NCBI GenBank assembly: GCA_964387775.1 | Contig: CAYLZO010000002.1 | Location: 8,003 to 72,002 of the forward strand | DNA from: an uncultured Anaerolineaceae bacterium | Lineage (GTDB): Bacteria; Chloroflexota; Anaerolineae; JAAYZQ01 | Direction: 5' to 3' | DNA: 64,000 nucleotides | Shown: one piece after another, positions 42,142 through 64,000 of the stretch | Position numbering within the stretch: position 1 is the first letter of the stretch | How the letters are laid out: every line of letters begins with the position of its first letter | Position numbers and translations under genes: made by a program | The notes under the pieces: generated by a model | Databases searched by the model: none | What the model saw: the letters and a program-made list of their open reading frames with translations, nothing else | Told to the model about the DNA's origin: nothing

Positions 42142-43143
42142 ATGATGTGCCTGTTAACCGAATCTGATGCCCATAGCCAATTCTGGGCGGATAAGCGGGT
42201 GTGTGTGACCGGCGGCGTCGGTTTCCTTGGGTCGTTCGTCGTCGAAAAGCTCAAGGCGCGGGGCGCCGGTGATGTGTTCGTGCCGCGCCATGTGGATTAT
42301 GACCTTGTCCAGATCGAAGCGGTCCGGCAACTGCTGGCCGACGCCCGGCCCGACGTGGTCATCCACTTGGCAGCGCGGGTGGGCGGCATCGGCGCCAACC
42401 GCGAGCACCCGGCCGAGTTCTTTTACGACAACTTGATGATGGGTGTCCAGTTGCTGCACGAGTCGTGGCGAGTGGGCGTGGCCAAGTTTGTGGCCATCGG
42501 CACGGTGTGCGCCTATCCCAAGTTCACGCCGGTGCCCTTCCGCGAGGAGGACCTGTGGAACGGCTATCCCGAAGAGACCAACGCGCCCTACGGCCTGGCC
42601 AAGAAGATGCTCCTGGTGCAGAGCCAGGCCTACCGGCAGCAGTATGGCTACAACTCGATCTTTTTGCTGCCGGTCAACCTCTACGGCCCCGGCGACAACT
42701 TTGACCTGGAGACGTCGCACGTGATCCCGGCTTTGATCCGCAAGTGCCTGGAAGCCCGGGAGCGGGGTGATGACGAGATGGTGGCCTGGGGCGACGGCTC
42801 TCCGACGCGGGAGTTCCTCTACGTCGAGGATGCGGCCGAGGGCATCTTGCTCGCTGCCGAGCGGTACGATGAGAGCGAGCCGGTCAATCTGGGCTCGGGA
42901 TTCGAGATCAGCATCAAGGACCTGCTGGGGACCATCGCCCGCTTGACCGGGTTCGAGGGCCGGATCGTGTGGGATACCAGCAAGCCCAACGGCCAGCCGC
43001 GGCGGGCGCTGAACACCGAGCGGGCCTGGCAGGCGTTTGGCTTCCGGGCGACGACCGATTTTGAGACCGGGCTGCGGCAGACCATCGCGTGGTACCGGCG
43101 CTCGCTCGACCGCGGGCGTGCGGGTATCGGGGTACGTCTGTGA
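42142..43143 (+). CDS. fcl: GDP-L-fucose synthase
   Basis: [50 protein letters not shown] and [13 protein letters not shown]. The start may be the second ATG at 42145 (GAGGAG RBS). Confidence 0.85.
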
Positions 43144-44621
43144 ACCTGGCCCGGCGCAGCATTACGTCTGCCTCATGGACGACGGTTACCAGCCTGACCA
43201 CAGTCGTGGTGTTGGCTGTGCGCTCGATCATCTTGGCTCGTTTGCTTCCGGTCGAGGTTTTTGGTATCTATGGTTTGGCAACTTCCATTATGGGGTTGAG
43301 TGTTGTCGTTATCAGATTTGGGATGGGAGGGGCGTTTTTACACCGTTCGCCAGAGACTGAGGATGAGCAAGAAGCGGCAGCTGTGCTCTTTACCCTGAAA
43401 TGCATTTTTACGGTAATCGGGGGTGCGCTGCTGGCCGCGAGCGCTTTTGTCATTTTTGACCGCGATGCCCGGACCGCTCTACTGCTGCTTGTGGCCACAC
43501 GTAGCGGCGTCGAACTGGCCCAGATTCCCCAGCTAATCTTGGCCCGTCGGGTTGTATACCGTCGTTTGGCGCTCCTACGATTAAGTGACGTTCTACTCTC
43601 TTCTCTGCTAGCGCTGACATTGGCCTGGCAAGGAGTTACGCTTTGGGCTTTGCTGGCTACGGACATCGTTACCTTGGTTGTAGTGGTAGTAGGGTTATAT
43701 GTGTGGCGACCCGTATGGCGACCACGTCTTGGCTGGTCACGCTCTATCGTGCGTTACTATCTAACCTTTGGCAGTCAAAGTTTCCTGGCTGTTCTGCTCT
43801 TGCAAGCCTTGGATCGAGTAGATGATCTATGGACGGGGTTTTACCTGGGAGACCTGGCTATGGGGTTCTATTCCAAAGCCTATCGGTTTGCCACATACCC
43901 TCGTTCTATCCTGGCCGACCCTATTACTGGTGTGGCAGGAGGTACGTACGCCGAACTGAAGCACCAGCGTCTTCGTCTGTCGCGGGCGTTTTTCCGAACC
44001 AATGCGTTTCTTGTGCGCAGTGGATTCCTACTGGCTGGGTTACTGGTCCTGGTGGCCCCCGAATTCATTCGCATACTGCTTGGTGTAAAATGGCTGCCGA
44101 TGCTGGACGCATTTCGACTGATGTTGATCTTTACCTTGTTCGATCCGATCAAGTCGACAGTGGCCAGTTTGTTCATCGCGGTAGGCAGGCCGGAACTGGT
44201 CGTCCGCGCCCGGTTGATCCAGCTCTTGGTGATGGTTGCTGGCCTTCTCCTCCTCAGCCCCACGATGGGCATCACAGGAGTGGCCCTGGCAGTTGATGCT
44301 ATGTTGGTGGTTGGTATTGCGATCTTGCTGCGGCAAGCCCGGACCTATGTGGATTTTTCGGCAAAGCGACTTTTTGCCGTGCCATTCCTGGGTCTAGTTA
44401 CTGGGCTTGCCTTTGCGCACGGTGCCATCCTGCTGCCGGGCGTGGCTGGTTCTGACTGGCGCACGGGATTGGTCAAAATTCTGGTCTTTTCACTGGTTTA
44501 TGGGTTTGTGCTGGGAGTCCTTGAGCGGCAGCAGCTGTCAGAGATGCTGGTCTACCTTGCCAGCCACGTGATCAAAAGAGATGCGAAACCATCCGGTGCG
44601 TCCCAACAGATTGGGAGCTAG
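43140..44621 (+). CDS. Wzx-type oligosaccharide flippase (polysaccharide biosynthesis protein family)
   Basis: About 493 aa with some 12-14 hydrophobic helices. Typical N-terminus [24 protein letters not shown] 43140 overlaps the fcl stop (GTGA). Confidence 0.75.
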
Positions 44622-44635
44622 CCGGAATAGGTCGG

Positions 44636-45691
44636 ATGGGTCAGATGGTGATGGATGACCGTGGAAGCAAGAGAATCGAGTCATCTGTGATTCTGGAGCA
44701 AATGATATTGTCCGGTGGGCCTCCTCGGAGTGGAACGATGCTCCTGGCCAAGATCTTGAACGCACATCCCGAGATATCGGTGGCCATGGACAACAGCGTT
44801 TATGAGAGCTGGAGCTTGTACTATTACCGCACGCGGCAAGGACTGGTTCAGGAACTCCGCGTCGGGATGCTGACCCCAGACCAGGCCCGGGCGCGCATGC
44901 TGGAATATCTGGTCAAAGATGGGCAGGTGTGGGGAGTCGCGCCCTCACCGAAGGTGGCCGGGTACCCGCTGGCTCCGGCGCCGGTTCGTCCTGGCTCTGA
45001 TGAACCCGTGCGATGGGGATTCACTTGGAGGATAAGTCGTTCGGTTCGACGGCGTTTGGGGTGGAGGGGGACTGACCCGCACAGATTCGTGCGGCACCGT
45101 GTGCCTGTGGCGTCCTATCGCGACGATCTACGGCTCTGCCTGAAATCGCCCGAGATCGTGTTCGTACTGCCTGAACTGGTCAGGGCTTTTCCACAATCCA
45201 AGATCGTGCTGGTCTACCGGCCAATTATCGAGATTGCCGAGTCTATGTATCGCAAAGGGTTTGAATGGCGGTTGTCATCCTATCACCGGCGTTGGAAGCA
45301 AGAAGTCGACGAATACGGCGATCTGATTCCGCCGCCGGGTGTACCCGAGAAATGGCGTGAATTGTGGTCTGGGGTGAGTGATTTTCAGCGATGCGTTATC
45401 TATGCCGCGAGTTATCTGCGGGCCATGGCCTTGGATGTTCCCAAACTCCCGGAGCCGGTCTTTATCTACGATCACGTCGACTTGAGGCAAGAGCCCTCAT
45501 CCGTGCTCGATCCTCTGGCTGAGTACCTGGGGGTAGAGGCTGGCGGCTGGCAAAGGGCGACCAAAATGATACAGAAAACGAGGCCCAAGGTTTCTTTGGA
45601 ACTCGAGATAGAGTATGCCGAAATCGCGCCGGAGATTGCCGTTCAAGAATGGAGCACGCGGATTGCGCGCCTTGCTACGAAAGGCTATTAG
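44636..45691 (+). CDS. Sulfotransferase-family protein (ST1)
   Basis: PAPS 5'-phosphosulfate-binding loop GGPPRSGTMLLAKIL. Later LVYRPIIEIAESMYRKG (3'-phosphate-binding-like R...S). Confidence 0.7.
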   Translation: MGQMVMDDRGSKRIESSVILEQMILSGGPPRSGTMLLAKILNAHPEISVAMDNSVYESWSLYYYRTRQGLVQELRVGMLTPDQARARMLEYLVKDGQVWGVAPSPKVAGYPLAPAPVRPGSDEPVRWGFTWRISRSVRRRLGWRGTDPHRFVRHRVPVASYRDDLRLCLKSPEIVFVLPELVRAFPQSKIVLVYRPIIEIAESMYRKGFEWRLSSYHRRWKQEVDEYGDLIPPPGVPEKWRELWSGVSDFQRCVIYAASYLRAMALDVPKLPEPVFIYDHVDLRQEPSSVLDPLAEYLGVEAGGWQRATKMIQKTRPKVSLELEIEYAEIAPEIAVQEWSTRIARLATKGY

Positions 45692-45697
45692 TCGTCC

Positions 45698-63466: not shown

Positions 63467-63503
63467 TGGCTCTTTTTCCTTGTCCTTATCTGAATGGGGA
63501 CGT

Positions 63504-63611
63504 ATGGAAACGACCTTAACTTTTGAATATGATCGTGACGCTGATATTCTTTATATCGTGGCTGCTCACCTGCGTCTGGTCACATCCGAGCCCCTGGTTT
63601 CATCTTTGTGA
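63504..63611 (+). pseudogene. Possible DUF2283-like remnant (35 codons)
   Basis: METTLTFEYDRDADILYI resembles the N-terminus of DUF2283 proteins but is about half their length. It lies in an AT-richer spacer. Confidence 0.3.
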
Positions 63612-63622
63612 GGGTTACAACC

Positions 63623-64000
63623 TTGAATGCATTAGCGCATAGTATTGCCGACAAATCGGCCCGGATCGCCGTCATCGGCCTGGGCTACGTGGGCCTGCCG
63701 CTGGCCGTGGGCTTTGCCAAGGCCGGCTATACGGTCCTCGGCCTCGACGTGGACGGGCGAAAGCTGGAGGCGCTGCACGAGGGCCGCAGCTACATCCCCG
63801 ACGCGGACACCGCCGACGTGGCAGCGACGGTCCGCGAGGGCCTGCTGTCGGCCAGCGACGACTACGACCGGCTATCCGAGAGCGAGGCCATCTTTATCTG
63901 TGTGCCGACGCCCTTTGACGCCATGAAGGCCCCCGACCTGAGCTACGTCGAGGAGTCGGCGCGGGGCATCGCCTCGCGGCTGCGGGCCGGGCAGTTGATC
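63623..64000 (+). CDS. UDP-sugar (UDP-glucose/GDP-mannose family) dehydrogenase, N-terminal part (3' end outside the window)
   Basis: This frame is absent from the ORF track because no stop falls inside the window. It reads (TTG)NALAHSIADKSARIAVIGLGYVGLPLAVGFAKAGYTVLGLDVDGRKLEALHEGRSYIPD, the classic NAD-binding N-terminus. A GAGGG RBS lies upstream. Confidence 0.8.
   Translation, partial: MNALAHSIADKSARIAVIGLGYVGLPLAVGFAKAGYTVLGLDVDGRKLEALHEGRSYIPDADTADVAATVREGLLSASDDYDRLSESEAIFICVPTPFDAMKAPDLSYVEESARGIASRLRAGQLI

Follow-up and report, generated by a model that had tools for sequence, protein, structure and literature searches.

Seven sulfotransferase genes within a glycan assembly array

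A stretch of 64,000 nucleotides of DNA from an uncultured Anaerolineaceae bacterium of the phylum Chloroflexota (contig CAYLZO010000002.1 of assembly GCA_964387775.1, positions 8,003 to 72,002; hereafter the window) carries between positions 42142 and 64000 a tightly packed array of glycan assembly genes, in which seven genes of the sulfotransferase (ST) family, ST1 to ST7, are interleaved with glycosyltransferase (GT) genes. The listing of open reading frames (ORFs) and their translations indicated that all genes of the array lie on the plus strand except ST5, and that the ST and GT genes either overlap by 4 nt or follow one another at distances between a few and about 40 nt, as in an operon. 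The array also codes for an fcl-like GDP-L-fucose synthase, a Wzx flippase, a large membrane protein with a Wzy_C domain, a WecA/MraY-family initiating transferase and a nucleotide-sugar dehydrogenase.

The seven ORFs had originally been assigned to the sulfotransferase family from short loop strings, and the assignment was borne out by the Pfam Sulfotransfer_3 profile (PF13469, curated cut-off 27 bits), which all seven passed with scores of 34.3 to 137.7 bits. The genes are located at 44636-45691 (ST1, 47.6 bits), 45698-46576 (ST2, 34.3 bits), 47559-48572 (ST3, 107.9 bits), 48592-49488 (ST4, 102.4 bits), 53454-54512 on the minus strand (ST5, 90.8 bits), 54530-55486 with an alternative ATG at 54506 (ST6, 137.7 bits) and 55638-56597 (ST7, 126.1 bits); the 318-aa form of ST6 is identical to database protein P0001. 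The loop strings PRSGT, GRSGS, PRAGST, PRSGTS, PRSGTT, HRSGTT and PRSGTT correspond to ST1 to ST7 in that order. Alignment of the seven amino acid sequences revealed that the Arg and Gly of the 5'-phosphosulfate-binding (PSB) loop (R31 and G33, ST1 numbering) are invariant, and that the R...S motif for binding of the 3'-phosphate, located further downstream (R195 and S203 in ST1) and at first attributed to most of the ORFs, is invariant in all seven. The same four residues are also invariant within the separate family alignments of ST1, ST2 and ST6/7. All seven enzymes carry a conserved Glu about 20 residues past the PSB loop, where TPST and the CurM sulfotransferase domain have their catalytic base. 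None contains a hydrophobic segment with a mean Kyte-Doolittle value above 1.41 in a 19-residue window, and thus the enzymes look neither membrane-spanning nor secreted. ST6 and ST7 are paralogues with 44% identity and the other pairs share 23-35% identity or are barely alignable, indicating, as had been supposed, seven distinct enzymes; they are not recent duplicates.

ST1 and ST2 gave the lowest Sulfotransfer_3 scores and matched PDB sequences slightly or not at all. The ST1 subfamily is rare, with 65 representative clusters at E<=1e-3 in an exhaustive representative search of 1.84 billion proteins; comparison of its profile with that of the ST6/7 family by hhalign gave a probability of 98.2% (E 3.8e-14). 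For ST2 a word-indexed search returned 169 homologous matches, which support the 292-aa start including the PSB loop, and the corresponding profile comparison gave 96.3% (E 1.7e-9). The sulfotransferase fold was checked by modelling in ST2, the weakest member. The AlphaFold model, constructed from 41 homologues, reached a pLDDT of 94.8 and a pTM of 0.92, and its top 41 PDB fold matches were all PAPS (3'-phosphoadenosine 5'-phosphosulfate)-dependent sulfotransferases, among them TPST1/2 (TPST2 at E 3e-7, TM 0.57), a schistosome SULT, CurM-ST, NDST1, 3-OST, Stf1/Stf9 and Cpz8; GPN-loop GTPases and other P-loop folds appeared only from rank 42, at a TM of about 0.24. The ST2 family has E-S-N-Q in place of the D-K-T-P that is invariant in the ST6/7 family.

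The nearest characterised system proved to be the one named at the outset, the xss cluster for the cyanobacterial exopolysaccharide synechan. ST3 to ST7 are full-length homologues of its sulfotransferase XssE, with 21-27% identity and E-values from 2e-22 to 6e-6 (ST3 7e-11, ST4 5e-11, ST6 and ST7 2e-22 each), while XssA, which is Sulfotransfer_1-like, showed weak similarity to any of the seven, at best E 4e-6 with 21% identity over 146 aa. NoeE was the sole NCBIfam model matched by ST3 to ST7; the match of ST3 covers the N-terminal half and scores 80.5 bits against an equivalog cut-off of 500, and no ST reached the equivalog cut-off of an NCBIfam carbohydrate-sulfotransferase model. The solved structures nearest to ST6 in sequence are TPST1/2 and the sulfotransferase domains of CurM and of olefin synthase (OLS), with E 1e-14 to 1e-11. 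Since these are polyketide and tyrosine sulfotransferases, acceptor specificity cannot be read from homology. The closest homologues of ST6 and ST7 in cultured bacteria belong to the Streptosporangiaceae, with 33-38% identity.

The Wzy_C protein and the other assembly enzymes

The largest protein of the array (1490 aa, 57903-62375) consists of about 22 hydrophobic helices with a Wzy_C domain (34.8 bits, cut-off 31.7), followed by TPR repeats and a C-terminal cyclophilin peptidyl-prolyl isomerase domain (Pro_isomerase, 157.6 bits). It had been described as a Wzy-like polymerase fusion. The fusion, of a Wzy_C domain to TPR and cyclophilin modules, is confirmed; the word polymerase goes too far, since neither sequence nor fold separates a polymerase from a ligase. 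Conservation is high in a large loop, predicted to be external, that spans residues 409-516 and has H510 in the motif SHNE; an Arg-rich loop comes after it at 664-701. Five helices run from one loop to the other and five more to the TPR region, which by the positive-inside rule would place the TPR and cyclophilin domains outside the cytoplasm.

The same architecture was found in about 100 protein clusters from metagenome-assembled genomes (MAGs) of Anaerolineae among the matches listed, with 57-76% identity, and most of these homologues carry the NCBI name 'peptidylprolyl isomerase'. In two related loci the cyclophilin is encoded by a gene of its own, immediately downstream of that for WecA (L011, 8597-9499; L012, 17630-18511), and therefore the cyclophilin association is conserved and the fusion is not obligatory. 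A PDB sequence search with the 890-aa membrane domain returned TPR noise only, and its AlphaFold model (pLDDT 78) gave no significant Foldseek match (best E 0.34). Comparison by hhalign revealed no similarity to the synechan polymerase XssF (0.2%), and a probability of 52.8%, limited to an N-terminal stretch, for a second Wzy_C protein of the window. This second, stand-alone protein (484 aa, 6041-7495, minus strand) lies 35 kb upstream and scores 61.9 bits, above the fused one; it could be a partner polymerase or ligase.

The remaining pathway enzymes were all found by Pfam and NCBIfam in the numbers first proposed, namely a Wzx flippase, two GT2 and three GT-B (GT4) glycosyltransferases, a WecA/MraY-family initiator and a UDP-sugar dehydrogenase. 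The Wzx/MOP-family flippase (43089-44621, with the true start probably near 43194) scored 137.4 bits with Polysacc_synt_3 and 54.6 bits with Polysacc_synt, and its orthologues in related loci share 51-61% identity. GT2a (46573-47562) and GT2b (49495-50346) matched Glycos_transf_2 with 99.8 and 103.4 bits. GT4a (50348-51412) matched Glyco_trans_1_4 with 52 bits and Glycos_transf_1 with 40 bits, and its orthologue in locus L014 is 62% identical. GT4b (52291-53427; Glyco_trans_1_4, 86 bits) has orthologues with 65-69% identity in L001, L007, L008, L014 and L017, and GT4c (56640-57881), which is of the 'stp1' type (NCBIfam TIGR03087, 351.3 bits, cut-off 316.65), has orthologues with 44-72% identity in most related loci.

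The WecA-like initiating transferase (62390-63466, true start possibly 62420) matched PF00953 with 119.6 bits; ECA_wecA was the best NCBIfam match, its 132 bits lying below the exception-level cut-off of 326, and the orthologues are 39-79% identical. The short-chain epimerase/reductase encoded by the fcl-like gene at 42142-43143 (Pfam Epimerase, 191 bits) aligned over residues 17-315 with solved GDP-L-fucose synthases (E 2e-75). GDPFucSynFcl was by far its best NCBIfam model, with 305 bits against an equivalog cut-off of 500, so that the initial fcl call is upheld by a full-length match and falls short at the equivalog level.

Only the N-terminus of the nucleotide-sugar 6-dehydrogenase lies within the window (63614-64000; UDPG_MGDP_dh_N, 99.4 bits). 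A full-length orthologue of 452 aa in the related locus L083 passed TIGR03026, a model for NDP-sugar dehydrogenases, with 427 bits, and its best equivalog-type matches were UDP-ManNAc dehydrogenase and TviB, all below cut-off. This suggests that the product is an N-acetylhexosamine (HexNAc)-uronic acid, the enzyme being closest to UDP-ManNAc/UDP-GlcNAc 6-dehydrogenases. A small ORF (METTLTFEYDRDADILYIV...) is present at 63504-63600 in the 148-nt, locally AT-rich gap between WecA and the dehydrogenase.

Recurrent core, cassettes and flanking regions

Among genomes, the nearest matches come from MAGs that bear the labels Anaerolineae, Chloroflexota and Candidatus Promineifilaceae. BLAST comparison revealed that the 3' part of the cluster, GT4b-ST5-ST6-(often ST7)-GT4c-Wzy_C/TPR-WecA-dehydrogenase, is syntenic across Chloroflexota MAG loci with 44-87% identity and forms a recurrent core, of which GT4b is the first gene. 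Orthologues of ST5 with 56-87% identity, encoded on the strand opposite to ST6, were found in L001, L002, L007, L008, L010, L011, L014, L017 and L085. ST genes in the relatives were counted with family hidden Markov models, since plain phmmer under-detects divergent members. Each of 25 related loci with a length of 8 kb or more contains one to five ST genes and the window, with seven, has the highest count; in density per kb several shorter contigs are similar to it.

The closest long relative, JGI contig Ga0568886_0000398, encodes a Wzy-TPR protein with 73% identity and seven Sulfotransfer_3 genes. Its 5' gene order is the same as that of the window (ST1-like, ST2-like with 80% identity, GT2, ST3-like, ST4-like, GT2) while the middle differs, being composed of GT2, ST, ST, a 292-aa unknown protein, ST, GT1, a 553-aa unknown protein and an epimerase. 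Analysis of the GC content at third codon positions (GC3) revealed values of 0.58-0.65 for the block wzx-ST1-ST2-GT2a (43194-47562), with wzx at 0.58, ST1 at 0.65 and GT2a, the last gene of the block, at 0.62, against 0.82-0.90 for the other cluster genes, a toxin-antitoxin pair aside, and for other parts of the window. The order wzx-ST1-ST2-GT2a also occurs in the closest relative contig (L164), and the composition suggests that this block may be a laterally acquired cassette. Because the core is syntenic, the middle variable and GC3 uneven, the locus is a mosaic in which exchangeable cassettes are combined with a recurrent core. By analogy with O-antigen or capsule loci, the sulfation patterns have probably diversified between strains.

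The toxin-antitoxin pair, an MNT nucleotidyltransferase (51455-51829; Polbeta, 30.2 bits) and a HepT-like HEPN protein (51811-52284; HepT-like_2, 98.6 bits) encoded by overlapping plus-strand ORFs between GT4a and GT4b, has a GC3 of 0.71-0.73 and is missing from L014 at the junction of the orthologues of GT4a and GT4b; it is an insertion outside the glycan pathway. ST5 and ST6 are divergent, with start codons at 54512 and 54530 that are 17 nt apart, and overlap if ST6 starts at 54506, and ST5 and GT4b converge with 26 nt between their stop codons; at least nine related loci share this arrangement. Given this proximity of ST5 to both neighbours, the promoters must sit inside adjacent coding sequences. 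In the gap between ST6 and ST7 lies a near-perfect plus-strand hairpin of about 100 nt (55507-55606; RNA minimum free energy -54.3 kcal/mol, z-score -7.8), both arms of which are made of repeated 10-nt units AATCTGTG(W)G. The repeat unit was found nowhere else in the window and in none of 165 related loci, and an Rfam scan of 42-64 kb gave no match, the hairpin included. Its role may be that of a terminator or attenuator or of an RNA stability element; alternatively, a small repeat element may have inserted there.

The 5' border of the cluster lies at about 42.1 kb; an extension further upstream was rejected, the genes there (Uma2 endonuclease, M24 peptidase) being unrelated. The 3' end lies beyond the window. 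The closest relative has the end of its cluster about 2 kb further on, where a DedA/VTT-domain gene (L083, 16943-17527) directly follows the dehydrogenase and unrelated genes come next; a DedA/VTT gene is thus probably also the next cluster gene just past position 64000. DedA proteins have been implicated in the recycling of undecaprenyl phosphate.

All sizeable ORFs of the other 42 kb were scanned with Pfam together with those of the cluster, and this 64-kb window is the scope of the gene searches reported here. The other 42 kb holds signalling proteins, hydrolases, the stand-alone Wzy_C protein, the M24 peptidase and the Uma2 nuclease. The first 31 kb (1-31 kb) is dense in GAF, STAS, SpoIIE-phosphatase, kinase and GGDEF signalling genes, and a gene at 21452-30370 on the minus strand codes for a hybrid histidine kinase of 2972 aa with 12-13 GAF domains, PAS, HisKA/HATPase and two receiver domains. 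The scan of the window revealed no NACHT/STAND regulator of the type that belongs to the XssS/XssR/XssQ module; signalling genes upstream of the cluster (GAF/STAS/SpoIIE/histidine kinase) are at least 11 kb away. An association of the locus with activated sludge was considered and dropped, as the isolate and contig names of the relatives, which are weak evidence, point more to hydrothermal, saline, mud and soil or sediment metagenomes.

Proposed pathway and comparison with known systems

We read the locus as a Wzx/Wzy_C-type, undecaprenyl-phosphate-dependent cluster for a multiply sulfated cell-surface heteroglycan in Anaerolineae/Promineifilaceae-like Chloroflexota, and would put the probability of this reading at about 0.72. 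Synthesis would begin with the WecA-like enzyme, whose family membership is clear and which may place HexNAc-1-phosphate on the lipid carrier. The two GT2 and three GT4 enzymes would extend it to a repeat unit of about six sugars, from donors that probably include GDP-L-fucose, made by Fcl, and the HexNAc-uronic acid made by the dehydrogenase. Up to seven soluble STs would then sulfate the lipid-linked oligosaccharide on its hydroxyl or amino groups, with PAPS as the donor and on the cytoplasmic side of the membrane, as in the synechan model; a glycan is the likely acceptor because the ST genes are dispersed among GT genes. Wzx would flip the sulfated unit and the Wzy_C domain would polymerise or ligate it outside the membrane, where the TPR and cyclophilin domains might act as an external assembly scaffold. 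The original prediction, a heavily sulfated, fucose-containing glycan with several sulfation positions on one repeat unit, is in this way partly supported, sound in its outline and over-specific in its detail.

Several points weigh against the proposed pathway. Chemical evidence for sulfate on a Chloroflexota glycan is, to our knowledge, available in no case. As first stated, gmd and the PAPS-synthesis genes sat and cysC occur in no substantial ORF of the window, and they are also absent from the downstream flank of the relative; nor was a fucosyltransferase identified. Genes for a polysaccharide co-polymerase (PCP/Wzz), for outer membrane polysaccharide export (OPX) or of the LytR-CpsA-Psr (LCP) family were likewise absent among the Pfam-scanned ORFs of the window; the genes for chain-length control, export and attachment may lie elsewhere, or the TPR domain may stand in for these components. 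Wzy_C passes its cut-off narrowly, in a family that also holds ligases and O-oligosaccharyltransferases, and the nearest solved structures of the STs are polyketide or protein-tyrosine and not carbohydrate sulfotransferases. In ST2, whose sequence departs from the DKTP motif and does not have its Lys, catalytic competence is uncertain. Deletion of xssE, the homologue of ST3 to ST7, had no marked phenotype in Synechocystis (PMC8205485).

The ambiguity of the Wzy_C domain leaves room for a different end of the pathway, in which a short sulfated glycan is moved en bloc to an S-layer or sheath protein, a lipid or the wall by a PglL/WaaL-type ligase; where the acceptor is a protein, the TPR and cyclophilin domains fused to the ligase would bind it and assist its folding. 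We regard this as unlikely. The borderline score in a Pfam family that covers ligases, O-oligosaccharyltransferases and polymerases alike is consistent with it, as are the protein-binding and protein-folding nature of TPR and cyclophilin modules predicted to lie outside the membrane, the absence of a PCP chain-length regulator from the window, and the stand-alone protein at 6041-7495, which could be the true polymerase. However, the cluster has no evident gene for an acceptor protein, the separate cyclophilin genes of L011 and L012 indicate that the fusion is not obligatory, and polysaccharide export machines often contain TPR scaffolds, as in PelB, BcsC, PgaA and AlgK.

That some or most of the STs act on peptide tyrosine, lipids or small metabolites and are merely located among glycan genes appears improbable. 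Such substrates would agree with the protein-tyrosine and polyketide-module enzymes that are the closest solved structures, and with the scores below every NCBIfam carbohydrate-sulfotransferase equivalog cut-off. They would not account for the interleaving of ST and GT genes in a single operon-like array or for an ST number that varies from locus to locus inside the same glycan cluster; moreover, XssE belongs to the same Pfam family, the NoeE profile weakly matches five of the STs, and Pfam scans revealed no precursor-peptide or polyketide synthase genes nearby. Finally, generic P-loop proteins or chance motifs next to an unsulfated polysaccharide, suggested by the frequency of short RSGT-like motifs and by the weak Pfam scores of ST1 and ST2, can be dismissed with near certainty, since all ORFs exceed the curated threshold with both PAPS motifs invariant, the profile-profile probabilities of ST1 and ST2 are 96-98% and the top fold matches of the ST2 model are sulfotransferases only; thresholds, motifs and fold refute generic P-loop identity, a possibility raised from the start, at the level of family membership.

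A bolder reading, which we offer as a rather doubtful one, is that the recurrent core together with DedA is no accessory exopolysaccharide locus and provides a housekeeping pathway by which Anaerolineae-type Chloroflexota make a sulfate-based anionic polymer of the secondary wall or sheath. This polymer, free of phosphate, would serve the function that teichoic or teichuronic acids have in other bacteria, with strain-variable sulfation cassettes resembling serotype determinants. It is hinted at because the core recurs in the sampled MAG loci and because the nearest cultured homologues of ST6 and ST7, in tandem, sit in a teichoic-acid-like locus. Were it true, a major bacterial source of sulfated glycans would have been overlooked in these abundant inhabitants of sediments, mats and sludge, and it would extend to the sulfated material resembling glycosaminoglycans (GAG-like) that has no known producers. 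More generally, the recurrent core and the window provide a concrete and testable genetic candidate for the synthesis of sulfated glycans in a widespread uncultured lineage, and a natural case of cassette-like ST gene content that differs between related loci; the seven divergent bacterial STs may also be of use in enzymatic glycan sulfation.

The xss cluster was described as having two STs, and such genes were said not to be found in other bacterial exopolysaccharide clusters (Maeda et al. 2021, PMC8205485). Bacterial sulfated polysaccharides were called exclusive to cyanobacteria in that paper and still in a 2026 paper on Actinoplanes that itself proposes a two-ST Wzx/Wzy cluster in an actinomycete (PMC8205485, PMC13390465). 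Sulfated GAG-like polymers and glycoconjugates have been recorded in granular sludge and in anammox granules, their producers and pathways not being known (PMC10483923, PMC7356697). A survey of MAGs from Shark Bay pustular mats found Chloroflexi MAGs without sulfotransferase and cast the phylum as degraders, not producers (PMC9723792), and a full-text literature search for sulfotransferase with Chloroflexi or Anaerolineae returned no paper describing clusters of the present kind. The sequence analysis predicts a heavily sulfated surface polymer in a phylum in which none has been described.

Among characterised systems, the synechan xss cluster (Synechocystis sp. PCC 6803, plasmid pSYSM, sll5042-60; PMC8205485) is the most similar. 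It is likewise of the Wzx/Wzy type with STs placed among GTs, neither cluster has an OPX gene, and the cytoplasmic sulfation of a lipid-linked unit proposed for synechan is the model adopted here. The synechan cluster has also been reconstituted in Synechococcus as a heterologous host (PMC13125312). It differs in having two STs and not seven, one of them an XssA-type (Sulfotransfer_1-like) member with no clear counterpart in the window, and in initiation by the 'sugar transferase' XssP, where the window has a WecA/MraY-family enzyme. The synechan cluster also contains a PCP (XssK) and the regulators XssQ, XssR and XssS, none of which is present in the window, and its polymerase XssF has no detectable similarity to the Wzy_C-TPR-cyclophilin candidate. 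The xss cluster is cyanobacterial and plasmid-borne, whereas the cluster of the window is from Chloroflexota, chromosomal and built on a recurrent core.

Two non-cyanobacterial clusters, Wzx/Wzy-type or GT-rich, resemble the window in containing ST genes. The wps-1 cluster of Actinoplanes missouriensis, with heparan-sulfate-like and Gal/GlcNAc-ST-like enzymes, is predicted to yield a sulfated exopolymer (PMC13390465), and in Pontiella sulfatireligans F21, which has one ST in a GT cluster with the putative role of making a sulfated GAG, a sulfated GAG-like polymer was detected chemically (PMC7356697). By their descriptions both are set apart from the window by having one or two STs of other subfamilies and no TPR/cyclophilin fusion.

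In the Streptosporangiaceae, as in the window, ST genes occur inside a glycopolymer locus, with ST6-like genes in one to three tandem copies. The context in Streptosporangium sp. CA-135522 (L036, 2364-15993) is teichoic-acid-like, with two TagF-type Glyphos_transf-GT2 fusions, NeuB and a CDP-alcohol phosphatidyltransferase, and not of the Wzx/Wzy_C/WecA kind. We know of no sulfated product reported for these loci; the tandem genes hint that cultivable actinomycetes may carry sulfated wall polymers. The Nod-factor sulfotransferases NoeE and NodH are also PAPS-dependent bacterial carbohydrate sulfotransferases, and NoeE sulfates a fucose residue of the Nod factor; their substrate is a lipo-chitooligosaccharide, whereas an undecaprenyl-diphosphate-linked repeat unit is proposed here. 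Taken together, ST-containing Wzx/Wzy-type clusters were already known, and individual genes of the present type are annotated as sulfotransferases in public MAGs; what is new is the phylum, the set of seven divergent STs, the conserved Wzy_C-TPR-cyclophilin protein and the mosaic organisation in cassettes.

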